A stretch of DNA of 61,489 nucleotides from a virus (IMGVR_UViG_3300042567_000475:1-61489); one strand, 5' to 3'; positions 26,600 through 58,037 are shown, counted from the first letter of the stretch. The notes: generated by a model not told the origin, from the letters alone. Translations and numbers: made by a program.

Positions 26600-26603
26600 G
26601 TTA

Positions 26604-33580: not shown

Positions 33581-34031
33581 TTTCCCTCACACTATTAATT
33601 TTACCATCTGTTTCAATTTGTAGTTCAACAAATTCTGTTTCTTTTATATTTTCAAATTCAATTACAAGATTGTCTCCATCAAAATAAACGTTTGTCAAAA
33701 GGTTGCTTGGTGGAAGCAACTCATTACTTGAATAGAATTTATCTTGGGGTATTTTACTAACTAATTTAATTGAAAACTGATCAAAAATAGATTTGTAAGA
33801 TGCTTTGTTTATAAGTATAAATGATGGGTCAAAGTCAATTGCTATCTTTTTTAAATTTATTATTGTAGAATATGACAGGTTTATTCCAGAAATAGTGTCG
33901 TGCCTAACTAGGTTTATTAAACTTGTTCCTCCAATATCTTGAAAAAGAAATTGTTCTATTTCTGCTACGCTCACAGATTGAGAGCTTATGTTTACAATAT
34001 CTCTTGATGGAATCTTTATTGCATCTGTCAT
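33570..34031 (-). CDS. Minor tail protein
   Basis: Tail-operon position, LFQDIGG. Confidence 0.55.
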   Translation of the reverse strand: MTDAIKIPSRDIVNISSQSVSVAEIEQFLFQDIGGTSLINLVRHDTISGINLSYSTIINLKKIAIDFDPSFILINKASYKSIFDQFSIKLVSKIPQDKFYSSNELLPPSNLLTNVYFDGDNLVIEFENIKETEFVELQIETDGKINSVRENDY

Positions 34032-37000
34032 ATTATTTCAACCACCTTAATTGATTGGCCTGGGCCGTCCAAGGATCTTGAATATGATATATCCTGAACG
34101 ACAAACCTAGTCTCTGGATCAACATATTCTATTTCACCTGGCATCATATAGTCTATTGTAACAATGTCTCCAAGTTGCAAATGGGGCATTGGAAAGGTAT
34201 TGATAACTATTTCTCTTCTGGGTTCCATAGTCTTCTCTATTAACCATCCCATTAAACTATTTGCATCATCTTCTGATTGAATATACATAGACTCTAAGCT
34301 AAACTCTTTTAGCCCGTATCTAGATCTGCTTGCTTTAATTTTATTATATTTTTGCAGACTAATGTTGGGAGAAGTAATTTCGTTACCTTGGTAAGAGGGG
34401 TCTGAATAATTAGAAAGTTTGTTAAAGTATTTATCTACAGATAAAACTTGTGTTGTATTCTGAGTAAAAGTTATCCCCAAGATCCTTAAATAATTTCCCG
34501 TAGTTTCGTCTAAGACAATTGCCTTGTCTGATGAATTAAATATTAAAAATTCTGATTCATACGCCCCTCCGTAAAATTTAGAAACTGTGTAGCCTCTATC
34601 GTTAGAAAATGTTTTAGCAATTTTTGAATAAAAAGAAGGGTAGGCTAGGTCATATTTAATGTTAAAATGGGCACACTCCCTCATGATTGTTCCAAACTCT
34701 TCAAAGTAAACTTTGTATTGAGTATTTGTATCTGGACTAATGCCTGTTAGGTATGTCGATTGAACCATTCCAGATATTGCGTATTTTCTAAGAAACTCAC
34801 TGGTAGATATCCCATTCTCATCAAAGACATTATTGGTTTGAGATATTTGACTATTTGTATTTTTAGCAACAAGGTCATCTAGTGCATACATGTTTTCAAA
34901 CATACAATGAGAGCTTCCTCTAACGAATAGAGCCATGGATGTGTTGATCGGTAATGGGCTTGTGTCATTAACTATTTGAATAAGTATGTTGTTTATGTAT
35001 AAATAAAATCTTATTCCTCCCCCACTTAAAGATTCATATTCAATTGATAAGTCATAAACTGTAGACTCTTCAGTAGTAGCGATTCTGTCTTGACCAACAA
35101 AAAATCCAGAGTCAACAAGGATGTTTGACAACCCTCCCCAAAGTTTTATAGGGGTAGCTGGAGAATTAGCGGTGTCTCCAACTTTCACATTTTTATTTAC
35201 TTTGTAAAATATTATATTATGCAGTGTTGAATTTATTTCTTCAGAATCATCTGCCAGAATATAGCTATCTATGTTTGTTTCATTTAGTGATGCAATCTCA
35301 AAATAATACCCGCTACCATTAGTTGGGTCTACCATAATACCCATTCCTCCAGAACTTGCATTTACACCAAATGAGCTTGGATTGCTTGGTGATTGCAAAG
35401 AAAAATAGTTACTTGATCCATTTGAGATTTGTCCAGAGTTTCTATTGACTTTTCCAATGATCCTCATCCTGGTTCCAAAACTTCTAAAAGAAAAATTAGT
35501 AGAGAGGTCCTTGTAAACATAAGAGACAAGATCTCTTGGGCTGGGAACAACTGGGTCTGATGCTGGACCAGTAATGACAAGTGCAGAAGATTGAACTGCC
35601 CCAGAGTCTGTTACTAAAAGATTATTTACTTCACCCTCAGCAAAAACTTTTGAAGACATGAAGTTTTTTATTATTCCATTTCTTTTAGACTTTCTAGCAA
35701 CAGTATTTATTTCTGCTAGCTCAACTCTCTGTGTAGTGCTTATCACTGGATTAACTATGCTTGCCGTAGGCTTGTTAGAAAAAATAAGATCTGAATACAT
35801 TTTTAAACCGTAGGTATTATCGTTGTCTGACCAATAGGGGTTAAGACCTGCGGAATGAAAAGTTATTTCTGTTCCAAATTGATTTCTTCCATGAACCCTT
35901 ACATCTCCATTTTTTAATATTGCAGACTCATTTACATTTTCATAGTATGGCTCAGAGTATATTCTTACCCTACCCGTTGGAAACATCTTTCCATTAAAGG
36001 CTAGGCTGCCAAAGTACTTCTGATACTCTTGGTTGCTTGATATCCAAACTACTGGTTCAGCGGAAGATGGGACAGAGTATTCAACGGCATCAAATCTAAT
36101 AATTTCTCCATTGGCGTATAAGTAACCTTGAAATCTTGGAAGCCAGTAAACGCTTTCTCCAAAATCAATAATGTTGTTAACCACTTGACGATTTGCAACA
36201 TAAGGAGCACTTGCACTAATGGGGTTGTTTAATGCCATGGCTCCCAGGGCGTAGCCACTTGAGACCTTGTTAGCTTCGTTAATAGTCTTGGTTTCATCAG
36301 TTGCTGCAACCTCCCACAAAAGAACTGGCTTATACTTATAAACTCTTTCGGAATCTAGTTTTAGCATTGAAGATAGGCTAGAAACTTCTCTTTGAATATA
36401 TCTGATGGTGTACATGATTTGTCCACTATTGATAATTCTTGTTTGATTATCTGAGATGGATTCAATGTTTGCAATCGTGTCATCGTTACCTAAAAGAATC
36501 ATGTCGGTTTCTCTATCGGTAGCATCTGGGAATAGAAACTCTTTTGACATAACGATAAAATTATTGTATTCATCAAAGAACATTGCAGTTTGTGTAGCAA
36601 CAGCCAGTCTTTGTAAGATCTCTGCAACGCTTACATTTGGTTCTACAAAAAAGAACGGAAGAATCGGGTCGTTTGCTGATGTAATATTTCTAAAAGAGTA
36701 ATTACTAAATCCTATATAATCTAGCATTGTAGATATGGCATAAGTTAGAGTAGTTTCTTGGGTAAGAACACTTGGAGCATTTGTTGTTTCTAATCTAAAA
36801 AATAAATCTCTTAGGGGAATAGATATTGTTGAGTCTCCCCCAGATGGTCTTGGAAATTCTTCTGCATAAAAAGTTTTAATGGGAACATATTTATCATACC
36901 CGTTTACATTTAAAATTGTTTCGTATATAACAAACTTGGTATTTTGTCTTGCGTATTCAGATACAATACTTCCCGTCAAACCATTAAAGATATTAGCTTC

Positions 37001-38323
37001 TGTAAAAATGTTATTAAAGTTTGCAATGCTAATTGCTCCATTTGAAACTGAAAGAGATCCTACAGGAAGGCCCATGCTTTGATTTGCAATAGATTTTGTT
37101 ATGTCAAATGACTCTGTATAATTTGAAAGGTTTACTACTAGTCTGGGAGATATTTCTATAACATCTAATGAAGAATCTGAAGAGTTCATTGTTTTTACAA
37201 CCACTCTAATCCCCCTTATTTGTTCAAACTCTGTAAAAAAATTCTCTCCATTAACTGTGTAGTAGATTGGATCTGATGGCTCTGTTACTGTTCCATTAGT
37301 CTTAACGATAGTTTCTTCATATAAGGACCATCCATAACTAACACTAGAGGTAGTCCATTCTGAACCGTCCCATATTTTTAATACACCTTGTGGGTTTGAG
37401 TCATCATCAACAATATATGCATAGCCCACAAGAGATCCCTGGTTGGGAAGCAAGGATGTAGTTGTTCTTCCAAGATAAGTAAATGTTGTAGCAAATCCTA
37501 GTGGGACTTTGATTCCATAAAAAATTTCTAAGTGACCATCTTTGGGAATTATTGGAGAGTCGTCTAGTCTTAAAGAGTTTTCATTAAACTCAATTGCATC
37601 TACCCAAGAGCTTCCCTTTAGTACTTGTATTTTAAATCTTTGTGGAACTGTAGCGTTTGAGTATGCAAAGAGAGGGTCTTCAATTACTAAGTCCCCTGAA
37701 GTTCTCATGCTGCCAAGGTTAACTGATCCTACGTTTGTTTGAATCTTTACAACAATTCTATTTGCATTTACAGGATTCTTATAAACAATAAATGGACAGG
37801 CATCATCAATACCATACCCATCTATCCCGATAGCAGCGGGAGTTGAAATTCCTCTCTCTGTTCCATTTTCTGTTCTGTAAGAACTCCAATATTTAAAGTA
37901 ATCATTACGAGAGGGCATGTAGTATCTTGGCCTATCGCCAGATCTAACATTGTCAATATATGATCCCGCTAAAAATCTTGCTTTATTTATTCCAGACCTT
38001 GGTCTAAATGGAAGAAGGCAGTCTCCCAGAGAGTAGTACAAGTCTTTTGTTTTATCTACAACAGAAAAATTTTCATCTTCAGTATCTGAGTACTCTTTGT
38101 ATGAAAGCTCAGCTTCTGTATAGTAGTCTCCAGTATCAAACTCATCGTATGTAGATATTGCTTCCAGGAACTTTGCTTCTGTCCCAAATGGGCGGTAGCG
38201 ATAGTTTCCAACTCTAGAAACATTATCTAAATCATTTAAATTAAACTCAGCTAAGATGAGAGAGGATATCTTTAATGAGTGACTATTGGAAAACGCATCT
38301 TGTAGGTCTGAGTCCTCAAACAT
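34028..38323 (-). CDS. Large tail-tip / hub protein
   Basis: 1431 aa, second gene after TMP; FFDEY, C-terminal YG...IQ...A...P.LQLGDIV. Confidence 0.75.
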   Translation of the reverse strand: MFEDSDLQDAFSNSHSLKISSLILAEFNLNDLDNVSRVGNYRYRPFGTEAKFLEAISTYDEFDTGDYYTEAELSYKEYSDTEDENFSVVDKTKDLYYSLGDCLLPFRPRSGINKARFLAGSYIDNVRSGDRPRYYMPSRNDYFKYWSSYRTENGTERGISTPAAIGIDGYGIDDACPFIVYKNPVNANRIVVKIQTNVGSVNLGSMRTSGDLVIEDPLFAYSNATVPQRFKIQVLKGSSWVDAIEFNENSLRLDDSPIIPKDGHLEIFYGIKVPLGFATTFTYLGRTTTSLLPNQGSLVGYAYIVDDDSNPQGVLKIWDGSEWTTSSVSYGWSLYEETIVKTNGTVTEPSDPIYYTVNGENFFTEFEQIRGIRVVVKTMNSSDSSLDVIEISPRLVVNLSNYTESFDITKSIANQSMGLPVGSLSVSNGAISIANFNNIFTEANIFNGLTGSIVSEYARQNTKFVIYETILNVNGYDKYVPIKTFYAEEFPRPSGGDSTISIPLRDLFFRLETTNAPSVLTQETTLTYAISTMLDYIGFSNYSFRNITSANDPILPFFFVEPNVSVAEILQRLAVATQTAMFFDEYNNFIVMSKEFLFPDATDRETDMILLGNDDTIANIESISDNQTRIINSGQIMYTIRYIQREVSSLSSMLKLDSERVYKYKPVLLWEVAATDETKTINEANKVSSGYALGAMALNNPISASAPYVANRQVVNNIIDFGESVYWLPRFQGYLYANGEIIRFDAVEYSVPSSAEPVVWISSNQEYQKYFGSLAFNGKMFPTGRVRIYSEPYYENVNESAILKNGDVRVHGRNQFGTEITFHSAGLNPYWSDNDNTYGLKMYSDLIFSNKPTASIVNPVISTTQRVELAEINTVARKSKRNGIIKNFMSSKVFAEGEVNNLLVTDSGAVQSSALVITGPASDPVVPSPRDLVSYVYKDLSTNFSFRSFGTRMRIIGKVNRNSGQISNGSSNYFSLQSPSNPSSFGVNASSGGMGIMVDPTNGSGYYFEIASLNETNIDSYILADDSEEINSTLHNIIFYKVNKNVKVGDTANSPATPIKLWGGLSNILVDSGFFVGQDRIATTEESTVYDLSIEYESLSGGGIRFYLYINNILIQIVNDTSPLPINTSMALFVRGSSHCMFENMYALDDLVAKNTNSQISQTNNVFDENGISTSEFLRKYAISGMVQSTYLTGISPDTNTQYKVYFEEFGTIMRECAHFNIKYDLAYPSFYSKIAKTFSNDRGYTVSKFYGGAYESEFLIFNSSDKAIVLDETTGNYLRILGITFTQNTTQVLSVDKYFNKLSNYSDPSYQGNEITSPNISLQKYNKIKASRSRYGLKEFSLESMYIQSEDDANSLMGWLIEKTMEPRREIVINTFPMPHLQLGDIVTIDYMMPGEIEYVDPETRFVVQDISYSRSLDGPGQSIKVVEII

Positions 38324-38904
38324 TAAACTTCCTCAAGACTAACAGATATATCCCACATGTCATAATTTGTTCCGCCACGTTTAATTACGTCATGGTCAAA
38401 TGAGGAAAAGAATACCTGTAAAACTTGATTATATTCTGCTAAATGACCATAGGTATTTTCAGTAAACTCATTGTATTTATCATATGCAAGAAGAATATAA
38501 AACGATCCTGTATGATTTTCATACCAATTTACAATGTCTACGCCTCCAGCTCCTAAGTCTGCTGTGAAATCTTCTACATTGTTGGTCAATACGCCAAGAT
38601 CAGAAAATGTTGCAGATGCGGAAAATGCACGGGAAGGCAAAAGATTCCATGAAAAAGAAAGTCTCTGTTTATCTGCTATGTGATAAGATCTCATAGTTCC
38701 ATTAATCATTCTTTTTTTGTTCTCTATTCTTTCACAAGATATAGAAATCTCTGATCTATTGTGGTCAGAAAGAATTATAAAGTCTTCAAATTCTGTGCCA
38801 ACTGGAACAAACTTTCCATTGCTTTTTTCATATGCATCAGCCCAGACAATTGCTTGGGGTCTTGAATAAGCAGATCTTCCAGCCATATATAAACTATTAG
38901 CCAC
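38323..38904 (-). CDS. Distal tail protein-like
   Basis: Directly after TMP; RMINGTMR...SW...ISVSLEEV. Confidence 0.65.
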   Translation of the reverse strand: MANSLYMAGRSAYSRPQAIVWADAYEKSNGKFVPVGTEFEDFIILSDHNRSEISISCERIENKKRMINGTMRSYHIADKQRLSFSWNLLPSRAFSASATFSDLGVLTNNVEDFTADLGAGGVDIVNWYENHTGSFYILLAYDKYNEFTENTYGHLAEYNQVLQVFFSSFDHDVIKRGGTNYDMWDISVSLEEV

Positions 38905-41900
38905 GGATGTTATTACTCCTTATACCTTTATTTTCAGTCATTTTAATCTTTTGCATCACGGCGTTTGCTACATCATTTGCATCCATGTCGGAGCCATTTA
39001 ACGTTACGTTTACATTATAATTATACATTGATCCAGACTTTTCTGTTTTATTAGAAGAATTGAAAGAGTTAGTTTTCATAGTTGGGAAGACTTGACCATT
39101 TAGTAATTCTAGTAAAGGTCCATATTGTTCTGCAACTCTTTTTCTTACAACAAATTCCCCTGGGGTGAGCAGAGCTGGAACCTTGTCTGTCATTCCTCTT
39201 CCAGGAACGATAGATCCATATGCATATTTTTTAGCTGATCCTCCATACATCATTCCTGGAGCACGTTCTGTAGATCCTTTGTAATTTACCATTCCACCTA
39301 TAGCATAATTAGAAATAAAACCACCAAAAGCTCTGTTTGCTGCTCTTGCTTTTGCTGCATTTGCTGCTGCTCTTACTGCTGCTGCTGCATCTGCTGCCCT
39401 ATCTGCTGCTGATGGTCCTGCTACTCTTTTTGCCGCTGCTTCCGCTGCTGCTCTTGCCCTGTCTGCTGCTGCCGCTGCTGCTGCTTTTGCTCTTTGTGCT
39501 TCTGCTTCATTTGCTTTTGCTTGCGCTGCTGCTCTCGCTTTTGCTGCATTTGCTGCTGCTTCCGCTGCTGCTCTTGCTGCTGCTGCATCTCTTACTGCTG
39601 CTGCTGCATCTGCTGCCCTATCTGCTGCTGATGGTCCTGCTACTCTTTTTGCCGCTGCTTCCGCTGCTGCTCTTGCTGCTGCTGCCAATCTTGCTGCATC
39701 TGCCAATCTTTGTGATTGATCTGCTGTTGGTGTTGGTGCTGATGGTGCTGATGGTGTTAATGTTTTTACTGGTGGTATATTAACAGAATTCGATCCCCCT
39801 CCACCGCTACCGCCGAGGTACCCGCCACCAGTGGTTAGGGCTGGACCAGCTGGATTTAAAAGCATCCCGCTTTGACCAATAGGGTAAGGGTCGGGTGCTG
39901 GCTCTGCTGGTGTTGCTTCTGTCTCCCCAGCATTATCTCCTGGAATAGTTTTGTTTAAACGATCTTGATCCTTTTGGAGATCTTTTAATTTAACTCTAAG
40001 ATTTTCTAGCGCCTCTGCAGCGTTATTATATTTTGTTGCAAGCCTATCGGCTTCATTATTTATTTGTATTTGCAAGTCATATATTTTATTTTCAGCAGGT
40101 AGTATTTTAGTACTTTGAATTATATAAATCTCATCTTGAATTACTCTTTGTCTCATCTGAAGATCTTCAATATCTTTATTAATCTTTTTCTTTTGCTTTT
40201 CTATTTCAAGAATTTTATTTTGAATGTTTTGAGTTGCTTTTTCTTTTTGAGACTCAAGAGCAGATCTTGCCTCTTCTCTACTTTGTCTGGCAAGTTCTTG
40301 TGACATTCCCAAAGCACCTTGGGCTGCAGCAGCAACGTCACCACGGGAAAGTGCTTGAGCAACATCAAGTTGCCCCTGCTTAAGTTTTGCAATATTTTCT
40401 TCTCTGTTATATATTTCATCAAGAGCTTCAATTTGAGCATCATATGCTTCAGAAGTTTTATCAGATAGTTCTTGAAGCTTTTCTATTTGATCGTCAAGGG
40501 GTTCAAGTTCTCTTTGCTTAAGTTCAATGTTTCTACCAATTATATCAACTTCTTGTTGTTTTCCTCTAACAATCTTTTCTTGCCCGTCAATAATTTTTTG
40601 CTGAGCTTCAACCAGATCTTCAAGAGGTTTAACTATCTCAATCTCTTCAATCTGACGTTGAACATCTTTTATTTCCATAAGGTTGTCGCGTTTTTCTTGT
40701 TCAAGTCTGCCTGGATCTCTAGCATATTCTGCTGCTTTTAATTTATTATAAGCATCTGTAAGGAGTTCTACCTTTCCAGTAGCATCCCCTGCTTTTAATC
40801 CCGCTGCTGCCAGTGCAGCAGCTAACTCTGGAGTTTTTCCTTCATTAATAAAACCTAGTTCTGCAACTAATAATGATGTTTGAGTTTTCATGTCAGTAAT
40901 AGACCCTGAAATTTTTTGAGCTTGATTGATTATAGGAGCATCTCTTTCTGCTGCTTCTCTCGCTTCTTTAAAAGCTTGTAATTTTTGATTAATCTCCCTT
41001 TTTTCTTCTTTACTTGTTCCTTTATCTTTTAGTTTTCTTCTTAGCTGTTGAGCATAAAGAAGATCTTCATCAGAAATGAGTTCTCTAATAGCATTTATGT
41101 CATCTTCATATAGACCCTTGTCTGCTAATTTTTTATTGTATTGTGAAGAAAGAGCAGTTTTTTTAGACTCTTGAACCAATGCTTGTGGAGTTAATGCAGC
41201 CATTGCTGCGGCGTCTGAAATCTTTGTTTTTTGGTAATCAGCATATGCTGCCTTGACTTTTTCAAGTCCACCCTTGATAAGTTTTAGTCCTGCTGCACCT
41301 TGAGACCTTAAATATTCTAAAAATTCAGGTGCAAATGGGCCAGCTATAAAGTTTTTAAATCCTTTTTCATTTTGAAGATTTGATATACCTTTAAAGGTTT
41401 CCCCTGATAATTTTGCTTGTTCTTTAAGTTGTTGGGCTATTGACTTTTCTCCACCGCCACTACTACCTGAGCTAGATCCAGAGCCAGGAATTGGTGCAAC
41501 AGTTGCCTCTACTAATGCTTTTTCTGTACCTATTTGACTTTGCAAAGATGCAATTCTTTTCAAAATTATTTGTCTTGATTCTGCATCTGTCGCAGTTTTT
41601 AGTGCTGCCATTGCACTGTTTAATTGCATAACAAGTGATAAATTTTTAACTTCATATCCCATTCTTATTTCAATCATTTGTTCTTGAACAACTGGATCTA
41701 ATTTATCAAAGTTTTTAAATTGTTCTCTTAGTCCAGCTATCGCATTTGCTGCTGCTTCTTGTGGAGTTCCTCCTGCTATATTTTTTCCACTATAAGCAAC
41801 AGCAATATCTATCATTGCTTTTTTTCTAATTTCTGAATTACCACTTTCTAAGTCTTTCATGGCTTTGTTAAGTTTTATAACATTTTTTGATACTTGCTCT

Positions 41901-44900
41901 GGAGTAAGTGGTTTTCCTTCTGCGTCAAGGGTTAGAAATTCCATTGCTGCAGTCATATTAATATTTGGATTAAGATTTTCAATAATTTTCCATTGATCTT
42001 TTAATGTTTTTGCAGCAGCACCAAATTTTAATAAATCTGCTGGGTCTGTTGTGTCAATTTTCAAACCCTTTATCATTTCATCTGGCAAAGACATAATATC
42101 TTCCTGCGCTATGGTTAACTTTGTAATTGATGAAATCATTTCTGCTGGAGTATTTTCTCCTTCAGTTTGAATTACATATCTAATTACTTTTTCAACTACC
42201 CCACCTTCTGCTGCTCTAGCAAAAGCTTTGTTGATTTTTTCTGATCCATCTACTTCTCTAACTGCTTTTCCATAGGCATCACTTTTTTGAATTGCGACTG
42301 CCTGCTCTACTCCAACTGATCCTGAAAGAGATTGAAGTCCGAATGCAATGTCTGTTCGTCTTCTTTCTTGTTCTTCAGGAGAAATAATATTTCTTCCTGT
42401 ATCTCCAGTCTGTATTCCAGCAGACTTAAGCGTTTCTATACCAGTTTTTAGAAGATTTTCTGGTAAGGATGCAATATAATTTTCAATTAAAGCTGTATTT
42501 CCTCCAGCTGCTTCAAATTCCTTACCTATTGTAACAACATCACTTGACTGTCCCTTTGTAATTCCTGGAATATTTTGTGCAAACGTAATAAATTGTGCAG
42601 TAGCAATACTTGCTCCATCTCGCAATGCCTTAAGTGCATCAACGTTGTACATAATTTCTTGACCAAATTGAGCAGCTTGTTCAGCAGTCATGTCTCCAGC
42701 AAGTACGGATGCTTTAATTGCCTCATTTAGTCCCTCAAGATCGACCTCTCTTGCAAGATCTTGTGCTTCTTTTGATTCTTCAACTAAGGAGGTTTGTTGT
42801 GTAGAATCAAGTTCACCAAAAGATTTATCAAATTGTACATCTGCTTGTTGCTTAACAAATTCTTTTTGATAAGCTGATTGTGAGGGCGTTATTACATCTA
42901 CCATCCCCAATGCCGCCCCCACTAGGTTTCCACTAAGTAGGCTTAATGCAGGCCTCAAATAATCTTTTGATTCGCTAAAGCCAAGGGAAGATGTTCCAAT
43001 GTTTGTTGAATTAGTAATTGCACCTACCTGATCTTCTGTATAGCCTGCTGCAACCATTTGTTGATCCAGAGCTTGTCTTGCGGCACCTTGTTCAGCAGCA
43101 TTGCTAACAGATTTTTTAATAACATTTGTGTATTGTTCTTGAGCCGTTCTTGCTTCTGTTATTGCAGTATGATATTCGTTCCAACCAATTGTTCCTTCTG
43201 CGTATTGCTGTTCGGCAACTCCAATTACATTTCCATAATCTTGAATTATTTGTGTGGCTGCCCCTATAGCTCTACCAGCGGTTTCATTTGAAAGGCTTGC
43301 TTCCCCACTTGATACTGCAAGTTTTGCAAGAGAACCATCGGCATCAACTGCCGCTTTACGCATATCAGCAATTTCTTTTATAGCAGAAGTTCCAGTTTTT
43401 TGTCCTGATATAGATGAAACAGCTTGATTTGAAAGAACAGAGTCTCCAAGTTTTAATCCTACTGCTTTAGCAAAAGTAGTTGCTGCTTTCTGATCCATCA
43501 TTCCAGATGCTATTGCTGTCTTTAAATAATCTGATAGTTTTTGGAATCTTTCAGCAGATGTTGAATTTTGAAGATCTTCAATAAACTTTTGTCCAGCACC
43601 AGATTCAAATACCCCAGAGAATTCATTTGCGATTGTTGCTTCTTCTTCTGAAGAAATTCCCATTACTGCTTTTTGTCTGGCTTGTGCAGGAGTTTCTGTT
43701 CCTAGTACTTGTGCCATTGTATTTAATGCATTTGCAGTAGCACCAATATTTGCTCCAAACTCCGCTGCTTTAGTGGCAGCATCATCTACACTCTTTCTCC
43801 AAATATATAATCCAGCACCTACTGCTGCTAAAGCTGCTGCTACTGCTGCTGCTGGAAGTGCAATTGCAGCAAGTGGTGCTAGCATTGGTCCAAGCATTGG
43901 TAGCATACTGCCCATGCTAAGAGCCATTCCTCCAGCATTCATGGCTGCCCCTAGTCCTGCATTTGATTCACCAACAGAGCCTGCACCCATCATTAAGGCT
44001 CCACCAGCCATTCCTATGCCCATGGAAGCTCCCATGCCCTTCATTCCACCCATAGATTGAAGACCTCTACCAATGGCTGAGTTTGCTTTATTTTCTTTTC
44101 CAAATCCAAGTGTTCTTGAAGAAAATCCTCTTTGTCTTGTAGTTGTTGTTCTTCTAATTGCTATGGCACGACCAATTTCTCTTCCAATTGTTTTATCATC
44201 CATAGCATTTCTACCCAATACTGCGTCTGACTGATATTCATATATTGGGGAACCTTTTTGTGCAAGAGCCTTTGCCTTTTCTGGATCTTTAATTGGCTTT
44301 CCATCTGCACCAAATCCAATGATATCTCCACCTTCTGCATATCCCATTAAAGTTCCATTATTAACAGAGCGTAGTAAATCTAAATTCTTTTTTGTAGCAT
44401 CTTTATTGATAACAAATTCACCTGGAGTAAGTACTGCTGGTACTGTGTCTTTATTCCCTACCCCTGGAACTATGTTTCTAGATGTTTTTGTTGAATCAAA
44501 TATTTCTCCACCAATATTTCTCATCTGAGGAAGAATGCCACCCATGTTAAGTTTTGATACAACATTTGGATAAGATACTTCTCTTCCTCTTCCCCAGTTA
44601 ACAAAGGCAGCCATATTTTCAGATTCATCATAAAGTCGATCTAAGTCGGGCTTTGCTTTATCGCGGGAAACTTCTCCTCTAACAATTGCCATTCTTATTT
44701 TTTTAATTTCTTCTTTTGCCTTGTCGTATCTTGCTTGAGCTTCTTCTCTTTCTACAATTCTAGTTTTTGGCCTTCCCGTTAGTCTTGCACCTAAAAGGGC
44801 AACCTCTTTTTCGTCAAGGATTTCATTACTTGCTGCTGGATTATTTATTCTTTGTTCATCTCTGGGAACAATTCTTCCGCTTACATCAAAGTATTTTTCT

Positions 44901-47900
44901 CCCTTCTTTATAGAAGTTTTATAAATTGTAGGAATATTTGATTCTTGTAAATCATCAATAATCTTTTGATGACCAGCAATAAATTCTTGATCTCTTTTAA
45001 TTCTTTCTTCAAGTTTTTTCTTGTTGGCTTTCCAAATAACACCACCAGATGCTTGAATTTCTTCTGGAGTTAGTCTTAAACCTAATGCCCCATTTTCTTG
45101 ATTAAATGGAGACCATGTTTTCAAAGGGTGTGGACCATCTGGCCCCAAAGATCTTAACCAATCTATATCTCTTTTCATTCCTTGACTTCTTTGAGCAATT
45201 TGGAATTTTGAGTTATTCATTTTGTCAAATAATCTAGAGCTTTCTATAAATCTTCCAACACCCTTACCTGTTGACCAGCTAGAGACTTCCTTTAAAGTTC
45301 CTCCGCTTATTGGGTCAACAGATCCTCTTGTTATGTCTATCTTTTTTCTAGATGTAGACAATCCTCTTTTTATGTTTGCTGGGATGTTTTGCAACATGTC
45401 ATCTCTATTTGATTGACTAATAGATGTTGTCATTCTTGAGAACCATTCAACAATGTTTGCTGGGATGCGGCCTCTTGCACCTCTTGCTGCATTTGCTGCT
45501 GCAGCAATTCCTCCTCCTCCTAGCATTGAAATCATTCCACCCATATTAAGTTGGGACGATTCTGACATAACGTATCTTCCTGATGATTTTCCAGTGCTCT
45601 TTAATCTTGATGTTCCTTGCATTCTTAAAGAGTCGTATAGTTTTTCAGGAAGATTTCTTTTTAAAATATCTGTAAAGATATTATCAAATTCTCCTGGTTT
45701 AAGAGGTGTTTCGCCTATACTTCCAAATATATTTCGTGCATCATTGTATGATCTTTCTATTGCTGGAATAGATATTGTGTCTGGTATACCTAGTCTTCTT
45801 GCAGCTTCCAGCTGCAAAGAAAATGGATGAGCAGGAGTGTTTGCAAGATCGTTATAGATATCTTCTCCAGTTATCTTTCCAAAAGAAGGTCCACCTTTAA
45901 GACCTTGATTAACTCTTGGTGATTGCCAAATCATTAACCCTGGATGATAAGTTCTTTCATCATCAATTTTAATTCCCTTGGCAACGTGACCTCTTTGCAA
46001 AAATTCTGCAGACAACATGCTTTCGTCCAAAACATCTCTTCCAAGGCTAGAGCTTGAACCCATTATTCTTTTTCTATCATTTTTTTGCAATCCCCCTCCC
46101 GTACCCGTCAACCAACCTGGAAGCAAGCCCCGTGAACTTCCCGACAATCTTTGAAAGTTTTTCATTAACATTCCTATATTGGCATACTGTACTCCAGGAA
46201 TCATTCCACCCTTGTTTGCATGAGTGGCTTGACCAGATCCTCTTAGACCTGCATAATCAAGAACTCCTTCAGGTCTTCCTAGATTTCCAGCTTCTCTTCC
46301 TGCAAGGTTTCCAATATTTATCTGTCTACCATCCATGTCAACATAAAGATCTTTTTTATTTTTTCCTGATGAATATTGAATTCCTCTAGCATCTAGGGTT
46401 TGTTTTATTAGTGGCAAAGATGCATTTGCATTTACAGCATCTCCTTGAAGCACATCCCTTATAAAATCATTTCTTCTTGTTTTGGGAAATCCAGCAGAGT
46501 CTAAATATTTTCTTACAGCATTACGAGAGGCTTTTTCAAATCTTCCGTTAGTAATACCTGTCATTGGAAGTTTTAAGATTTCTTCTTTATAAATTCTGTC
46601 AAAAACATTTCTATCTAATTTTGCACCCAAATAACTGTCTAGCTGTTTTGCCAATGGGGAATAAACATCTGGTGTATTCAATTCTTTAAGAAGATTATCT
46701 CTTGTTAAATCCCCTCTCATCATAGCTAGGTTTGAGTCTTGAGACATTCTAAAAGTTAGGTTTCCACGAGTTTTTAATCCAAGCTGTTCTGGACTAAACC
46801 CAAGTCTTTCAACAGCAAATCTTAAAGTGTCTACCCTTACATTTTGTCCTTTTTGATATTTTCCAGTTAAAGTATTGTATAGGTCTTGTGAGCTTCTTGA
46901 GGATGCTGCGTTTGATGCTTGAGTTTTTCTAGTCCCCCCTCTACCGCCCATTGCAATTGGAATAGTTGCTGCCTCTTGTCTTTGAGTCTGTACTCTTGCC
47001 ATAACTCTTTGCATTGCAGCGGTCATACCTGCCCCACCACCAGTATTCAACATAGAGACTGGCTTTCCACTATTAATGGCATGAAGCAAAGAGAAGTTTT
47101 CCTGTGTGGCCTTTTTGTTTACTACAAACTCTCCAGGTGTTAGAACTGCTGGGACGGTATCTCTATTTCCAACCCCTGGAATAGTGCCTCCACTGTTTCT
47201 TGCAACTATTGGAAGAGGTCTGCCTGCAAGATTTGACGATCCTCCTCTAGCCCTAGTCATTGCTGCGCCAGGAATTGCAAATGCTCCTCCTGCGACTGAA
47301 GCTTTTGAGGCGTCCATCATTCTTGCAGCAAGAATTTGATAAGAAGCTGCTAATTCATCAACTGCTGTACTTGCTACTCCAGCAGCTAAAGGCTGGTCTC
47401 TTAATGCCATATTTACAAACTCAGTGGATTGTCCCAATTGCATTGCAGCGTTTGCTGCGTCCATTTCTGCAAGACTCATGTATTTTAATGTTTGACTTAC
47501 TGCCTGAATTGAACCAGATATTCCACCTTTTGTAAATCCCTTAAAGGCTACTCCAATAACATTTCCAAATTTAATAAGAGTTCCTGTTAGGTTCATTAAC
47601 AAACCTAAAAACATAGTTCCTGCTGGGATTAAAATACCAGTAATTACTGTTCCAAATCCAATAAACTTTTTAGCAAAGTCTGGTAAAGAATTAAATTTTT
47701 CTACTAGGCTTCCTAGAAATTCAAGAACAGGAATAGCTAGTTGAGTAAACATTTCTCCAATTGGAGCTATGGCAAGCTTTAGTCTTTCCATTGCTGCGAC
47801 AAATTTTGTTGCAGAAGAATCTTCAATAGCACCAAGTTCTTTTGTAGCAGAAGCAGCAAGTTGTGCTGCTGACAATGCAGCAGTATCCATAACTCGTGAA

Positions 47901-49258
47901 GCTTGAGATCCATCCTTAATAATATTATTAAACAAAGCTCCAAGTCTTGCATACTGGTATTTTCCAAATACCTTTTCAAGTGCTTGTTGTTTTCCAAATT
48001 CATCTAGAGTAGCTAATGCTCTAGCAAAACCTTGAACAGTTCCCATAAGATCTCCGCGATTTGCGTCAACAATTGCATTGATATTTATACCAAGTTCGCC
48101 TAGCTTTTCTACTGCTCTGTTTGTTGGGTTAATCAAAGAGGCAAGACCAGATTTTAATGCGTTTGCTCCTTGAGCAGCAGAAACACCGCCTTCCTGCATA
48201 GCAGCAAGCATTGCAGCCATGTCTTCTACAGATCCACCAAGACCTTTAATAACTGGAGCAACTCTTGGAATAGCCTGTGCAAGATCTTGCAGGGTAACAA
48301 CTGTTTGGTTTTCTACCATGTTCAAAAAGTTAATTGTTTTTGTTAAATCTTTACTCTGTAGACCAAAGGCTGTTTGCAAAGCTATTGTTGTTTCAAGTGC
48401 TTCACTTTGTTCCATTTGACCAAGTGTTGCAAGTCTAGTTGCTTCTCTGGTTGCATCAATAAGATCTGCGCCCTGGGAACCAGCAGCGGCAGCTTGAGCA
48501 GCCAGACCAATAGTATCTTTTACTGCAATTCCATACTTTGTATATTCTTTTGCCAATTCCTTAACAGCTTCAAGGTTTGCTTCCATCTCTTCTGGTGGTG
48601 TAAAAGCATCTCCATAAACTTTTCTAAAGTTAATTGTTTCTTTTTCAATTTCTCTAAATACTTTTCCAGATGTGGCTGCAAAAATTGTAAGTGGTACTGT
48701 AAAGCCAACCATAAGCTGACGACCAGCCCACTGAGTATTCTTACCAAAATTAATCATTGATGTCGTTGATTGGGTAAGCATTGCTCTATGAATTGCTAAT
48801 TTTTGTGCTGAAACTGCTGCTTGAGAATTAAAGGCTTGAAGAGGTCTAATTGCAAGTGACTCTCTAAATCCATTTGCTGCTGAACCAGTGGCTATAAATT
48901 GAGTTTCTAATGCTGATGCACGGGCATTTGCCAATGATAGGACTGCTGCTGCTTCATTGCTACCCTTTTTAAATCTTGCGTTAAAGAATTGACCTATTGT
49001 TCCTTGTCCCTTTTGAAGAGTCTTGTCTAGTCTAGAGGCAGCGGTTTGCATCCTTACTGTTTCTGCACTAAATAATCCTCCAGCATTAACCATCTCAGAA
49101 AGCTCTGATGCAAGATTTTTTGCTGCGCTAGCTTGAACTCTATTGTTAGTATTTAAAGCTGACTGAAATGAGTTTATCTGAGCCTGAAGCTGCCTAAGAC
49201 TTTGAGCAGCGTCACTAGTATTGATGTTGACATCAATATTAACTCTAGTATTTGCCAC
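38897..49258 (-). CDS. Tape measure protein, 3453 aa, with internal enzyme-like cassette
   Basis: Follows tail chaperones; N-terminal TP901-type core, TM segments, coiled coils; three PGEFV modules. Confidence 0.93.
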   Translation of the reverse strand: MANTRVNIDVNINTSDAAQSLRQLQAQINSFQSALNTNNRVQASAAKNLASELSEMVNAGGLFSAETVRMQTAASRLDKTLQKGQGTIGQFFNARFKKGSNEAAAVLSLANARASALETQFIATGSAANGFRESLAIRPLQAFNSQAAVSAQKLAIHRAMLTQSTTSMINFGKNTQWAGRQLMVGFTVPLTIFAATSGKVFREIEKETINFRKVYGDAFTPPEEMEANLEAVKELAKEYTKYGIAVKDTIGLAAQAAAAGSQGADLIDATREATRLATLGQMEQSEALETTIALQTAFGLQSKDLTKTINFLNMVENQTVVTLQDLAQAIPRVAPVIKGLGGSVEDMAAMLAAMQEGGVSAAQGANALKSGLASLINPTNRAVEKLGELGININAIVDANRGDLMGTVQGFARALATLDEFGKQQALEKVFGKYQYARLGALFNNIIKDGSQASRVMDTAALSAAQLAASATKELGAIEDSSATKFVAAMERLKLAIAPIGEMFTQLAIPVLEFLGSLVEKFNSLPDFAKKFIGFGTVITGILIPAGTMFLGLLMNLTGTLIKFGNVIGVAFKGFTKGGISGSIQAVSQTLKYMSLAEMDAANAAMQLGQSTEFVNMALRDQPLAAGVASTAVDELAASYQILAARMMDASKASVAGGAFAIPGAAMTRARGGSSNLAGRPLPIVARNSGGTIPGVGNRDTVPAVLTPGEFVVNKKATQENFSLLHAINSGKPVSMLNTGGGAGMTAAMQRVMARVQTQRQEAATIPIAMGGRGGTRKTQASNAASSRSSQDLYNTLTGKYQKGQNVRVDTLRFAVERLGFSPEQLGLKTRGNLTFRMSQDSNLAMMRGDLTRDNLLKELNTPDVYSPLAKQLDSYLGAKLDRNVFDRIYKEEILKLPMTGITNGRFEKASRNAVRKYLDSAGFPKTRRNDFIRDVLQGDAVNANASLPLIKQTLDARGIQYSSGKNKKDLYVDMDGRQINIGNLAGREAGNLGRPEGVLDYAGLRGSGQATHANKGGMIPGVQYANIGMLMKNFQRLSGSSRGLLPGWLTGTGGGLQKNDRKRIMGSSSSLGRDVLDESMLSAEFLQRGHVAKGIKIDDERTYHPGLMIWQSPRVNQGLKGGPSFGKITGEDIYNDLANTPAHPFSLQLEAARRLGIPDTISIPAIERSYNDARNIFGSIGETPLKPGEFDNIFTDILKRNLPEKLYDSLRMQGTSRLKSTGKSSGRYVMSESSQLNMGGMISMLGGGGIAAAANAARGARGRIPANIVEWFSRMTTSISQSNRDDMLQNIPANIKRGLSTSRKKIDITRGSVDPISGGTLKEVSSWSTGKGVGRFIESSRLFDKMNNSKFQIAQRSQGMKRDIDWLRSLGPDGPHPLKTWSPFNQENGALGLRLTPEEIQASGGVIWKANKKKLEERIKRDQEFIAGHQKIIDDLQESNIPTIYKTSIKKGEKYFDVSGRIVPRDEQRINNPAASNEILDEKEVALLGARLTGRPKTRIVEREEAQARYDKAKEEIKKIRMAIVRGEVSRDKAKPDLDRLYDESENMAAFVNWGRGREVSYPNVVSKLNMGGILPQMRNIGGEIFDSTKTSRNIVPGVGNKDTVPAVLTPGEFVINKDATKKNLDLLRSVNNGTLMGYAEGGDIIGFGADGKPIKDPEKAKALAQKGSPIYEYQSDAVLGRNAMDDKTIGREIGRAIAIRRTTTTRQRGFSSRTLGFGKENKANSAIGRGLQSMGGMKGMGASMGIGMAGGALMMGAGSVGESNAGLGAAMNAGGMALSMGSMLPMLGPMLAPLAAIALPAAAVAAALAAVGAGLYIWRKSVDDAATKAAEFGANIGATANALNTMAQVLGTETPAQARQKAVMGISSEEEATIANEFSGVFESGAGQKFIEDLQNSTSAERFQKLSDYLKTAIASGMMDQKAATTFAKAVGLKLGDSVLSNQAVSSISGQKTGTSAIKEIADMRKAAVDADGSLAKLAVSSGEASLSNETAGRAIGAATQIIQDYGNVIGVAEQQYAEGTIGWNEYHTAITEARTAQEQYTNVIKKSVSNAAEQGAARQALDQQMVAAGYTEDQVGAITNSTNIGTSSLGFSESKDYLRPALSLLSGNLVGAALGMVDVITPSQSAYQKEFVKQQADVQFDKSFGELDSTQQTSLVEESKEAQDLAREVDLEGLNEAIKASVLAGDMTAEQAAQFGQEIMYNVDALKALRDGASIATAQFITFAQNIPGITKGQSSDVVTIGKEFEAAGGNTALIENYIASLPENLLKTGIETLKSAGIQTGDTGRNIISPEEQERRRTDIAFGLQSLSGSVGVEQAVAIQKSDAYGKAVREVDGSEKINKAFARAAEGGVVEKVIRYVIQTEGENTPAEMISSITKLTIAQEDIMSLPDEMIKGLKIDTTDPADLLKFGAAAKTLKDQWKIIENLNPNINMTAAMEFLTLDAEGKPLTPEQVSKNVIKLNKAMKDLESGNSEIRKKAMIDIAVAYSGKNIAGGTPQEAAANAIAGLREQFKNFDKLDPVVQEQMIEIRMGYEVKNLSLVMQLNSAMAALKTATDAESRQIILKRIASLQSQIGTEKALVEATVAPIPGSGSSSGSSGGGEKSIAQQLKEQAKLSGETFKGISNLQNEKGFKNFIAGPFAPEFLEYLRSQGAAGLKLIKGGLEKVKAAYADYQKTKISDAAAMAALTPQALVQESKKTALSSQYNKKLADKGLYEDDINAIRELISDEDLLYAQQLRRKLKDKGTSKEEKREINQKLQAFKEAREAAERDAPIINQAQKISGSITDMKTQTSLLVAELGFINEGKTPELAAALAAAGLKAGDATGKVELLTDAYNKLKAAEYARDPGRLEQEKRDNLMEIKDVQRQIEEIEIVKPLEDLVEAQQKIIDGQEKIVRGKQQEVDIIGRNIELKQRELEPLDDQIEKLQELSDKTSEAYDAQIEALDEIYNREENIAKLKQGQLDVAQALSRGDVAAAAQGALGMSQELARQSREEARSALESQKEKATQNIQNKILEIEKQKKKINKDIEDLQMRQRVIQDEIYIIQSTKILPAENKIYDLQIQINNEADRLATKYNNAAEALENLRVKLKDLQKDQDRLNKTIPGDNAGETEATPAEPAPDPYPIGQSGMLLNPAGPALTTGGGYLGGSGGGGSNSVNIPPVKTLTPSAPSAPTPTADQSQRLADAARLAAAARAAAEAAAKRVAGPSAADRAADAAAAVRDAAAARAAAEAAANAAKARAAAQAKANEAEAQRAKAAAAAAADRARAAAEAAAKRVAGPSAADRAADAAAAVRAAANAAKARAANRAFGGFISNYAIGGMVNYKGSTERAPGMMYGGSAKKYAYGSIVPGRGMTDKVPALLTPGEFVVRKRVAEQYGPLLELLNGQVFPTMKTNSFNSSNKTEKSGSMYNYNVNVTLNGSDMDANDVANAVMQKIKMTENKGIRSNNIRG
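39371..39676. repeat. Two identical 87-bp direct repeats (39371-39457, 39590-39676) in an Ala-rich GCT/GCA tract
   Basis: Both encode ARAAAEAAAKRVAGPSAADRAADAAAAVR. Confidence 0.9.
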
Positions 49259-49259
49259 T

Positions 49260-49631
49260 TTAAATTACCTCATAGTCAAGTCCTGCGCCAATTCCGAATC
49301 CAGTTCTTGAGGCATTTTTGCCACGAAGAGTAGTTATGTCCTTTGGATCGTTTGACGCGCCCTTGCTATTAGCCTTTGCTTTTATTTTTTCCCATGTGTC
49401 CATGGCATTGGATTTTGATTTATCAATATCTACACCTTGAATTGCTGCAAAGAATTTCTTGTTTTCATAATCTTCTTGATTCTTTGCTTCAAGGATTGCG
49501 ACTAGTTCTGGCATTGATAAATTATCCTCCAATTCTTGGTAATCTTTCCAGTGTCCCAGAAGGAATACCCTTGATTCTAGTACGACGAGATCTAGCTCTA
49601 GCCAGCTAGAGCCGCCGCCAGTGCGTTTGGG
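49260..49631 (-). CDS. Tail assembly chaperone, -1 frameshift extension (gpT-like)
   Basis: Frame opens exactly at the slippery site and continues ...WLELDLVVLESRVFLLGHWKDYQELEDNLSMPEL. Confidence 0.85.
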   Translation of the reverse strand, partial: PKRTGGGSSWLELDLVVLESRVFLLGHWKDYQELEDNLSMPELVAILEAKNQEDYENKKFFAAIQGVDIDKSKSNAMDTWEKIKAKANSKGASNDPKDITTLRGKNASRTGFGIGAGLDYEVI

Positions 49632-49927
49632 TCATTCAACTTAATACCAGATGCTACTTCAATAATTTTGTACACCGTTGGTAGATCAATGACCTCTTCT
49701 AGCTTTTCTTTTGTTGCGTAATCCTCGTTGTACTGCTTCATTGCAATTACTGCACAATCAAGAAGCAGGTCCATTGACTTAATGTTGTCAGATGCAATAT
49801 CTTCATCACCAATCTTCTGGAACTCCTTCATAAAGTCACGAAGAAGTGTAATCTTTAGTGGTCGCATCTTGATGTTTACTCCATCAATTAGCTCTACTTC
49901 TACTGTTTCATATACGCTCGTTGCCAT
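49598..49927 (-). CDS. Tail assembly chaperone (gpG-like)
   Basis: Between major tail protein and TMP. Confidence 0.85.
   Translation of the reverse strand: MATSVYETVEVELIDGVNIKMRPLKITLLRDFMKEFQKIGDEDIASDNIKSMDLLLDCAVIAMKQYNEDYATKEKLEEVIDLPTVYKIIEVASGIKLNDPNALAAALAG
49625..49631 (-). other. -1 ribosomal slippery heptamer C CCA AAC
   Basis: X XXY YYZ in the correct phase near the end of the chaperone gene, with a downstream hairpin at 49595-49612. Confidence 0.85.
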
Positions 49928-56110: not shown

Positions 56111-57664
56111 TTATTGCGTTGTACGACCTTCTCCACCAGCATTTCTTCCTGTTGGAGAATTTGGACCATCTGTTGCATTATTTTGTCTTTCTGTGTCGCG
56201 TGATCTTTGGGTAGTATTCTCTGCTCTTTGCTGAGCAGTTAATTGAAGTGGATCTTGTCCACCCTGTCTCATTGGCAATCCAAGCCTCATTCTAACTTCA
56301 TTTGGAACAACAACCTGGGCCTTAAGATATCTTTCATCAATCTGACTCTGTGTATTTTCATCTGTAAGAGTAAGTTCGTTTAGTTTAAGATCAAACATAT
56401 CTGTTTTTTCTTTTACAATTTTATTAAGAACCTTCTCCAACATTCTTTGGGCTGGCCTTGATACCTGTTCTTTAAATGTTCTATCATTTGCTAGTGCCGC
56501 CGCAATAGACATTCCTTGTCCACCACCAACTTTTGAAATAGGAACCTGATGAGACATTAAGATATCATTTGTATTTGATACATGATACTTTTGGAAAGAT
56601 CCGTCCTGAATACCATTTTCAATTGGCTCCATTTTAAACTCAACTTTATTATCAGGTGAGTCTGCAGGAAGTGGTAGGAAAAGAGTTCTATGATTCTGTC
56701 CACGCAATCCAGACTGCATGAACCTAAATAGTTTTTCCTCTGACTCTGCACTAAGTCTTGCTCCCTTGAGGGTAACAATATAACGAGGAACTGCTTTATT
56801 CTCAAAGTAATCAATGTTATATCTGCTAGCTAATTGATCTCCAACAATAGCCATTGATGATGATAAAGCGTCTGGGATACCATAGTAGCTATTTCTAGGT
56901 GTGTACTTCTTAAAATGAATAAGCTCGTTTGGTCTTGGATCATTGGTAATATTGTTTGGAGTTTTTTTGTCTTGAAAGTTTTTAAAGAATACTGTTTTTT
57001 GATTAACTATTTGAACGTATCCATCTCTTAATCTACGAACACGGATTGTTGTCGCAGGAATATGTCCAAGGTAACCAATTTCTCCAGTTACAGTTCTACC
57101 AACTTCCATGTAACCATTCCCTGTTGCTTCATAGTCTGTCCAAACTTTTTCTAAAACATGGGTAAAGGTATCTTCATCATTGCGAGATTCAAGCCAGTCC
57201 ATTAAATCTTTTTTAGCACGCTCAATTTTTCTATGCGCTCTTCGCAACTGATCATCTGTGTCTGCATCTTCAAGTCTATCCATTACAGCTTCTGTAATGT
57301 CAAAGCCGTATCCAAGTCCTACAATATTTGCTACCTTGGCATTGATTGATGAGTGGTTTGCAAAAGAGCTATCAAAAAATGTAGCTAACTCGTCAAGGTT
57401 ATAGGGTGGAATAACAACATCAAAAAGTCCATACGCTGTTGTAATATCTTGTAAAGGAAGTAACTGCTTTGATTTTGTATCTTGTTCGCCTGTCCAAACT
57501 TTGGTCATTCTTGATACACGGCGTTTAAAGTTTGCATCTAAACCATCATACTTTTTTACTTGATCAACTTCTGCATTGAATTCGTCATAAGACTCTTTCT
57601 TCGTAGAACTCTTATCTAGATTGTCAATCTTTGCACGGTACTCTATTTCATTATCCATTGCCAT
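56111..57664 (-). CDS. Portal protein
   Basis: TGNGYMEV.R, IPATTIR, ELIHFK, YYGIPD, YFEN.AVP, NEVR..LGL. Confidence 0.92.
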   Translation of the reverse strand: MAMDNEIEYRAKIDNLDKSSTKKESYDEFNAEVDQVKKYDGLDANFKRRVSRMTKVWTGEQDTKSKQLLPLQDITTAYGLFDVVIPPYNLDELATFFDSSFANHSSINAKVANIVGLGYGFDITEAVMDRLEDADTDDQLRRAHRKIERAKKDLMDWLESRNDEDTFTHVLEKVWTDYEATGNGYMEVGRTVTGEIGYLGHIPATTIRVRRLRDGYVQIVNQKTVFFKNFQDKKTPNNITNDPRPNELIHFKKYTPRNSYYGIPDALSSSMAIVGDQLASRYNIDYFENKAVPRYIVTLKGARLSAESEEKLFRFMQSGLRGQNHRTLFLPLPADSPDNKVEFKMEPIENGIQDGSFQKYHVSNTNDILMSHQVPISKVGGGQGMSIAAALANDRTFKEQVSRPAQRMLEKVLNKIVKEKTDMFDLKLNELTLTDENTQSQIDERYLKAQVVVPNEVRMRLGLPMRQGGQDPLQLTAQQRAENTTQRSRDTERQNNATDGPNSPTGRNAGGEGRTTQ

Positions 57665-57998: not shown

Positions 57999-58037
57999 GA
58001 CAACCATTGTACCATAATTTGCCTGACTTACTTAATT

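Follow-up and report, generated by a model that had tools for sequence, protein, structure and literature searches.

Tape measure proteins (TMPs) are generally regarded as rulers with an additional part in opening the cell envelope, apart from a few known exceptions, namely, muralytic motifs and a single virion RNA polymerase. The stretch of DNA analyzed here (referred to as the window) is the whole of the IMG/VR virus record IMGVR_UViG_3300042567_000475:1-61489, a linear sequence of 61,489 bases, and it raises the question of whether a TMP may also carry a set of exchangeable protein domains. A preliminary description of the window had proposed that a repeated module in its TMP brackets three basic domains, namely, two nuclease-like paralogs and an ADP-ribosyltransferase (ART)-like domain, which would be swapped via the conserved flanks and delivered into the host. 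Our analysis points to a bay of domains that are compact, under selection, and confined to TMPs and that close relatives reshuffle at fixed joints. Judging from sequence comparisons, we consider this architecture to be real and well supported. Our overall reading, which we regard as probable rather than assured, is that the window encodes a giant modular TMP of an uncultured siphophage, with a bay of joint-delimited, swappable cassettes that are carried in the virion and play an accessory role at DNA entry.

Variable bay of the tape measure protein

The protein in question is encoded by a single open reading frame (ORF), and its earlier assignment as a TMP was borne out by a match to PF10145 (PhageMin_Tail) at amino acids (aa) 235 to 432 (E = 6.7e-29; 101.6 bits against a Pfam cutoff of 33.2), by matches of 11 PHROG tape measure families to the first ∼790 of its 3453 residues, and by its position within a tail module. 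The features that make up its bay and the regions on either side are the following (nt, nucleotides):

38897..49258, minus strand: TMP gene, 3453 aa, GTG start, single ORF
47219..49258, minus strand: conserved N-terminal core, aa 1-680, with PF10145 at nt 47963-48556
47066-47200, minus strand: PGEFV module copy 1, aa 687-731; with the flanking joints GG690 and GG740 it spans 47024..47203
46223..47026, minus strand: cassette A, aa 745-1012, with a predicted folded core at ∼aa 785-1010
46184..46222, minus strand: joint A/B, aa 1013-1025, H-A-N-K-G-G-M-I-P-G-V-Q-Y
45551..46183, minus strand: cassette B, aa 1026-1236
45509..45550, minus strand: joint B/C, aa 1237-1250, L-N-M-G-G-M-I-S-M-L-G-G-G-G
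44552..45508, minus strand: cassette C, aa 1251-1569
44354-44488, minus strand: PGEFV module copy 2, aa 1591-1635; with the joints GG1573, GG1583, and GG1643 it spans 44312..44551

The hypervariable bay comprises aa 742 to 1572 and holds cassettes A, B, and C, whose limits agree with those given in the preliminary description. Also as described there, all three segments between copies 1 and 2 are basic, with net charges of +15, +6, and +15 versus -35 for the ruler part of the protein. A joint of the form N-x-G-G-(M/I)-I-P is found at the edge of every segment, with GG pairs at aa 690, 740, 1017, 1240, 1573, 1583, 1643, and 3321. In the A/B joint, the residues H, A, N, K, G, G, and I were invariant in all 18 of the aligned relatives. 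The real segment boundaries thus appear to be short GG joints and not only the two long modules.

Exchange of cassettes at the joints

A word-indexed search with aa 680 to 1700 of the TMP returned 466 giant proteins. Among the 120 matches listed, a set picked with a query that itself contains the PGEFV module, 2, 3, 4, 5, 6, 7, and 8 module copies were found in 11, 59, 15, 19, 9, 4, and 3 proteins, respectively. Presence was counted over 123 collected proteins: the N-terminal core was common to 79 of them, cassette A to 17, cassette B to 10, and cassette C to 8. This mosaic presence was seen among proteins with a 78 to 84% identical core. P0003 and P0005 match the window protein up to the A/B joint peptide and then diverge; the two carry A and C with an unrelated cassette in between. 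A is missing from P0006, P0007, and P0008; P0010 and P0012 to P0018 possess A without C; and B-like cassettes directly follow module 1 in P0042, P0045, P0046, and P0057. Across these proteins, cassette combinations appear to be independent of one another.

The same pattern was observed at the DNA level in the relative L001, where nucleotide identity changed block by block: 81% over aa 1 to 741, 92% over aa 1238 to 1644, 91% over aa 1774 to 3393, and 99% over aa 3389 to 3454. Cassettes A and B could not be aligned to L001, the breaks lying at GG740, GG1240, and GG1643 and similarity resuming at aa 1238 within the B/C joint. The synonymous divergence (dS) from L001 was 0.54 for the core, 0.20 for C, and 0.12 for the rod, and these unequal values suggest that the blocks have had separate histories. 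More generally, 83 of 121 BLAST segment ends lay no farther than 20 aa from a joint, where 22% would be expected, although the ends are not independent events. In the 81 TMPs that have module 1 at aa 600 to 760, the first bay ranged from 242 to 2847 aa (median, 687) and formed 50 architecture groups.

The preliminary description had proposed to check whether the flanks are kept while cargo number and type vary, and this is what the L001 blocks, the mosaic presence, and the 50 architectures revealed. Its suggestion that swapping proceeds via two conserved flanks was right in that the flanks are kept; exchange, however, occurs at GG joints on every cassette edge, not just at the two flanks. We conclude from the comparison of these sequences that close relatives gain, lose, and replace whole cassettes in frame and exactly at the joints.

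The stretch that follows module 2 (44159-44311, minus strand; aa 1650-1773) is also replaced in L001, although this relative is otherwise 91 to 92% identical, and a further small site of variation may lie downstream of the bay. Precomputed Pfam lists contain EF-hand matches in P0024, P0028, P0030, P0034, and P0070, proteins of 4.6 to 5.5 thousand aa with 6 to 8 module copies; the EF-hand in P0070 (aa 3240-3258) was below the Pfam cutoff when scanned.

The PGEFV module and its distribution

The PGEFV module is ∼45 aa long and is itself a mini-cassette set between two joints. The TMP contains three copies, the first two at the positions where the preliminary description had placed the repeat. 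The third, which that description had missed, is the following:

39098-39217, minus strand: PGEFV module copy 3, aa 3348-3387, 50-51% identical to copies 1 and 2

Copies 1 and 2 do flank the bay as described, but because of the third copy, the module is not simply the bracket of one cassette. Over 45 aa, copies 1 and 2 share 62% identity (28 of 45 residues; BLASTP E = 7.6e-18), rising to 22 of 27 in the core, so that the term "near-identical" applied to them earlier fits the 27-aa core and not the full length. The reported divergence at synonymous sites was confirmed: 18 of the 28 shared residues use different codons, and nucleotide identity is 89 of 135. Judging from this codon usage, the copies probably stem from an old duplication and have been maintained by protein-level selection.

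When cultured phages were searched with copy 2 by tblastn, the module was found at 278 places in 200 records, whose hosts include Gordonia (89), Mycobacterium (42), Klebsiella (10), Nodularia (9), and Salmonella (9). Of the 25 rows listed, 21 lay under tape measure features, two under features labeled endolysin, and one under a hypothetical protein, the last being in a record without annotation. The module also occurs in at least 636 IMG/VR stretches. A PDB-wide profile search at E ≤ 1 returned only gp16 of mycobacteriophage Douge, with matches at aa 973 to 1017 and 1421 to 1461 (E = 0.0026 and 0.0081). This phage is not alone in having such an architecture.

Fold, family, and selection of the cassettes

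The clearest structural result was obtained for cassette A. Its AlphaFold2 model, built on a 19-row alignment, had a mean predicted local distance difference test (pLDDT) score of 78.9, with blocks at ∼85 to 97 over model residues 51 to 260, and is predicted to be a compact alpha/beta domain. In this respect, the bay is unlike an ordinary ruler helix, as the preliminary description had supposed. Relatives down to 37% identity share 24 invariant columns, and a conserved polar patch is formed by N904, E908, K909, R912, N913, and Y918 (alignment numbering). Foldseek searches with the model gave no row at E ≤ 0.001 either in PDB (best E, 0.078) or in BFVD (best E, 0.055), and VIA, run against 48,161 chains, gave none at Z ≥ 5 (best Z, 4.8). 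With the A4 profile, the best rows among PDB sequences were insignificant (a designed coiled coil, E = 0.024, and the HAD phosphatase 2hx1, E = 0.045). A HAD-type hydrolase was considered for A and rejected: 10 of 50 VIA rows pointed to it at Z values of 3.4 to 4.5, but these cover only the helical bundle, a common arrangement. We take cassette A, as modeled, to be a real orphan domain that is compact and has no recognized fold or family.

Cassettes B and C were predicted less well. For B, pLDDT values of 52 to 84 were reached only over aa 1105 to 1204, and the joint model of B and C was poor (pLDDT, 48.2; predicted template modeling score, 0.27), its better parts being aa 1105 to 1204, ∼1344 to 1444, and ∼1504 to 1554. 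The latter two are helical hairpins of C in this low-confidence model, which predicts long hairpins of this kind for the second half of the cassette. Foldseek found no match to the B and C model (best E, 1.4), in which B was barely probed, and VIA returned only generic helical hairpins over model residues 309 to 420 (Z up to 8.3).

Family searches yielded little beyond the TMP itself. Pfam scans of the whole TMP and of six pieces found only PF10145, with chance-level rows for the pieces (E = 0.05 to 4.2), and these scans detected no muralytic motif; in 22 relatives, PF10145 alone was above the cutoff, and no toxin family was found by Pfam in the cassettes or in these relatives. The whole TMP had no match among PDB sequences. 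When 1.84 billion cluster representatives were searched by HMMER with aa 732 to 1600, only 10 proteins were returned at E ≤ 0.001. Six of these are giant TMPs of 2,406 to 3,725 aa; the other four, of 72 to 1,041 aa, we read as probable fragments, and P0121 among them carries the TMP core. A tblastn search of cultured phages with aa 680 to 1700 matched only four Gordonia records, covering 18% of the query, and single-sequence IMG/VR scans with A and B had no matches. The stored ESM Atlas model of the B-like fragment P0123 offered no lead (scores of ≤0.89, low recognition). No immunity gene was evident, the neighbors being tail genes, although small ORFs were not examined as immunity candidates.

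These results bear directly on whether the cassettes are injected enzymes, two nuclease-like and one an ART. Basic cassettes would suit such enzymes, and gp96 of Thermus phage P23-45, as described in the available text on it, demonstrates that a TMP is able to carry one. Yet no Pfam family was matched at E ≤ 10 beyond chance-level rows, and the fold matches include neither a nuclease nor an ART. The label "nuclease-like" for the first two segments found no backing in Pfam or in the fold matches of A, and the B model was poor. Nor could these two be recognized as paralogs, since self-BLAST of 150-aa tiles (E ≤ 0.01) gave module pairs and one weak, unrelated pair. ART folds are beta-rich, whereas C is modeled, with low confidence, as mostly alpha-helical, and its matches were helical hairpins; the third segment likewise had no Pfam match to an ART. 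The enzyme labels are thus unsupported, B and the first half of C having been barely probed by the poor model, and we consider injected enzymes of these kinds very unlikely.

Selection was assessed against L001. The ratio of nonsynonymous to synonymous divergence (dN/dS) was 0.19 for cassette C (dS, 0.20), compared with 0.23 for the core (dS, 0.54) and 0.36 for the ruler part (dS, 0.12; 91% nucleotide identity). The cassettes thus appear to be under purifying selection. Bay length varies widely, and TMP length sets tail length according to the available literature, so that the cassettes could be imagined as neutral spacers that lengthen the ruler and drift freely. The dN/dS ratio of C, as low as that of the core, and the confident fold and 24 invariant columns of A speak against such drift, and we find this explanation hardly credible.

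Remaining layout and gene neighborhood

After the bay, the TMP continues with module 2, a Gly/Met-rich and hydrophobic segment, the ruler, an Ala-rich stretch, module 3, and a 66-aa tail. The features outside the bay are as follows:

47588-47665, minus strand: hydrophobic segment 1, aa 532-557, within the N-terminal core (Kyte-Doolittle scan)
43799..43906, minus strand: hydrophobic, membrane-like segment 2, aa 1785-1820, preceded by the Gly/Met-rich stretch (Kyte-Doolittle scan)
39959..43711, minus strand: long acidic ruler, predicted to be helix-rich, aa 1850-3100 (about 1300 aa)
39269..39958, minus strand: Pro/Gly-rich and then Ala-rich low-complexity stretch, aa 3100-3330
38900..39097, minus strand: C-terminal 66 aa

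The helical character of the ruler was read from the composition and net charge of aa 1850 to 3100. From the structures of the Douge, T5, and lambda tails, the C-terminal 66 aa would be expected to plug the Dit/Tal hub. The Ala-rich stretch (∼aa 3190-3310) contains degenerate tandem repeats at 39338-39685 (minus strand) with periods of 15 to 39 nt and 60 to 75% matches, and it holds a near-duplicate peptide block.

All long ORFs of the window lie on the minus strand. PHROG scans identified a ribonucleotide reductase, a portal, a head protease, a capsid protein, an Ig-domain tube-like protein, and minor tail proteins, in addition to a DnaE-type polymerase, a primase, a helicase, and a recombinase. 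The gene order around the TMP is portal, protease, capsid protein, Ig-domain tube-like protein, two small ORFs, TMP, a 193-aa ORF, and a 1431-aa minor tail protein, the immediate neighbors being the following:

49260..49927, minus strand: two small ORFs (109 and 90 aa) upstream of the TMP gene, matching only PHROGs of unknown function
34028..38904, minus strand: Dit-like (193 aa) and Tal-like (1431 aa) tail tip genes downstream of the TMP gene (phrog_10359 minor tail protein, E = 1.6e-52)

By their positions alone, the 109- and 90-aa ORFs would be a tail assembly chaperone pair and the 193-aa ORF would be Dit. The only terminase-like ORF (594 aa; weak PHROG matches, E = 1e-13) is at 16464-18248 (minus strand), ∼38 kb from the portal gene, which is directly adjoined by the ribonucleotide reductase gene (56111-59987, minus strand). 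This layout of terminase, portal, and ribonucleotide reductase is unusual for a siphophage, and the record is only about half complete. The DnaE-type DNA polymerase (1104 aa; phrog_405) is encoded at 23327-26641 (minus strand), with the primase, a DnaB-like helicase, and a UvsX-like recombinase close by.

Proposed role at DNA entry

According to the available text of PMC12617516, bioRxiv 10.1101/2022.09.20.507954, and PMC10770324, the tail tube is filled by TMPs, which exit before the DNA does and whose length determines that of the tail. If the TMP of the window is likewise packed in the tube and expelled into the envelope before the DNA, its cassettes would ride in the virion and be released at the start of infection. 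Their most likely role would then be that of accessory proteins acting at DNA entry, a role suggested by their being basic and N-proximal, near the DNA end. As candidates, they may bind or protect the incoming DNA end, counter defenses, or engage host envelope proteins, and they would not be recognizable enzymes. The joints may in addition be cut at maturation, as happens near T5 pb2C and in the Gly-rich part of lambda gpH; of all the steps in the proposal, this one is the weakest. We infer both host delivery and joint cutting from these parallels.

A different role would follow if the cassettes faced the envelope, as host-contact or channel modules that dock inner membrane or periplasmic proteins or build a trans-envelope conduit; they would then vary because hosts and TMP-sensing defenses vary. 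The bay does sit between the hydrophobic segments at aa 532 to 557 and 1785 to 1820, its domains were found only in TMPs (if the short HMMER matches are read as fragments), and part of C is predicted to be a helical hairpin. In the available descriptions, moreover, lambda gpH* forms a periplasmic channel (PMC12617516, bioRxiv 10.1101/2022.09.20.507954), lambda and other TMPs work with ManYZ, the SNIPE defense binds TMPs, and dependence on ManYZ and susceptibility to SNIPE correlate with a variable region of the TMP. Cassette A, however, is modeled as compact and globular, with a conserved polar patch and no obvious channel element. Wholesale cassette replacement at 92% nucleotide identity goes further than the point or segment changes that the same descriptions give for ManYZ and SNIPE escape, and the N-proximal position parallels that of the P23-45 gp96 polymerase, described as acting in the cytoplasm. 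We therefore regard host-contact or channel modules as rather unlikely.

Alternatively, the TMP might be a polyprotein that is cut at its GG joints, by a phage or host protease or by self-cleavage, leaving free A, B, and C in the lumen to be injected separately. Within the region, no peptides are more conserved than the joints, and two known cuts invite comparison. T5 pb2 is cut into pb2* and the 92-residue pb2C (PMC12617516, bioRxiv 10.1101/2022.09.20.507954); this length places the cut, by indirect derivation, ∼2 residues before G-G-M-M-Y-P-G-V-S-Y at aa 1130, a peptide that by eye resembles G-G-M-I-P-G-V-Q-Y of the A/B joint. Lambda gpH is cut at maturation in a Gly-rich region near residue 690, by a mechanism that the available text of PMC12617516 leaves unexplained. 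By eye, gpH has a single, whole PGEFV-like unit between F-A-T-G-G and Y-A-T-G-G (∼aa 733 to 790), inside gpHC. A hidden Markov model of 437 module instances matched gpH at aa 752 to 777 with 9.5 bits, a weak score from a one-sequence search, and lambda was absent from the PDB-wide module profile search at E ≤ 1. Against the polyprotein stand the indirect placement of the T5 site and, in the available accounts, the unmapped lambda site; an ungapped joint profile also scored the T5 pb2 site no better than chance, 118 of 500 shuffles being as good. Joint conservation would equally fit flexible, recombination-tolerant linkers or docking peptides. We entertain the polyprotein as a possibility, but a tentative one.

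The best match of the joint profile in lambda gpH was F-G-G-M-I-P-M-F at aa 103 to 112, in the N-terminal part and outside gpHC (score, 2.5; 0 of 500 shuffles).

Several points weigh against cassettes that are carried in the virion and act at DNA entry, the reading that we favor. The record is ∼52% complete according to CheckV, which is a weakness. True effector and toxin domains are usually common to other delivery systems; that the HMMER search did not find the cassette domains in such systems favors TMP-specific structural or host-contact modules. No family or fold was recognized for the cassettes with Pfam, Foldseek, and VIA, the B and C model being poor, and the confidently predicted part of C, a helical hairpin, could be simply ruler-like. 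The tail tube lumen, which we take to be ∼4 nm wide, would presumably be too small for 3 to 6 copies of three folded 25- to 35-kDa domains, which would thus have to travel unfolded or extended. As to the cutting of the joints, both the chance-level profile score at the T5 site and the weak lambda match, with lambda missing from the PDB-wide list, count against it.

If the domains do enter the cell, the tails of siphophages would bring in a variable set of proteins before the expression of any phage gene. This would bear on how phages meet first-line defenses and would supply new folds as well as a model from nature for packing cargo into tails. The joints also bear on the old question of the lambda gpH and T5 pb2 cut sites, as they point to a conserved, mutable peptide. 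In the boldest version, the joints would be processing sites, the PGEFV modules docking or packing elements, and giant TMPs a general, recombination-programmable polyprotein platform with which many uncultured siphophages load families of novel proteins into the tail lumen and inject them before their DNA. Cassettes such as A would in that case constitute a reservoir of new early-acting anti-defense or DNA-piloting proteins. We hold this version to be doubtful. The value of the finding is tempered by enzyme labels that are wrong or untestable and by cassettes that have no assigned function.

Comparison with known systems

Joint-delimited, swappable cassette bays in phage TMPs were not found described in the open-access PMC and bioRxiv literature. 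Already in print are embedded muralytic motifs, one virion polymerase, and the TMP-derived modular effectors of contractile injection systems. The Douge gp16 TMP (PDB 8ZDO; PMC13033339) is the sole entry with a solved structure that matches the module profile, and it has two internal copies; its resolved residues, according to the available text, are 1658 to 1699 only (PMC13033339). Mycobacteriophage TM4 Tmp (PMC1796659) and the T5 pb2 metallopeptidase resemble the window protein in having functional non-ruler segments that are used at infection, as far as the available text describes them. They differ from it in their recognizable muralytic motifs, of which Pfam found none here.

Lambda gpH (gpH* and gpHC) and T5 pb2 (pb2* and pb2C) are alike in being expelled before the DNA and cut near a Gly-rich stretch, as the available accounts have it. 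Unlike the window protein, they have one module or none and neither a variable bay nor a multicassette array; the likeness is weak in sequence for lambda and was judged by eye for T5. A conserved delivery part with variable payloads is also the design of MuF, Rhs, and CdiA polymorphic toxins and of polyvalent proteins. We found no TMP case in the open-access PMC and bioRxiv literature on polymorphic toxins and polyvalent proteins, and the payloads in the window protein, in contrast to those of MuF, Rhs, and CdiA, are internal, multiple, and free of known toxin domains, so that membership in this group is not supported.

Also comparable in design are the Sle1-type effectors of actinobacterial contractile injection systems (PMC13277306). 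As described in the available text, these belong to bacterial contractile nanomachines rather than to phage virions and carry their functional domain at the C terminus; compared by description, they share with the window protein a TMP-derived modular scaffold, exchangeable domains, and loading into a tube. Thermus phage P23-45 gp96 is a 5002-aa TMP whose virion RNA polymerase, at residues 327 to 1124, acts in the cytoplasm, according to the available text of PMC10770324. It contains a proven polymerase as a single fusion, whereas the window protein has three orphan cassettes and repeated joints, and the two are likened by architecture alone. Both, however, are giant TMPs with an N-proximal non-ruler domain, which in gp96 is brought into the host and in the window protein would be, and in both the presence of such domains varies among relatives.

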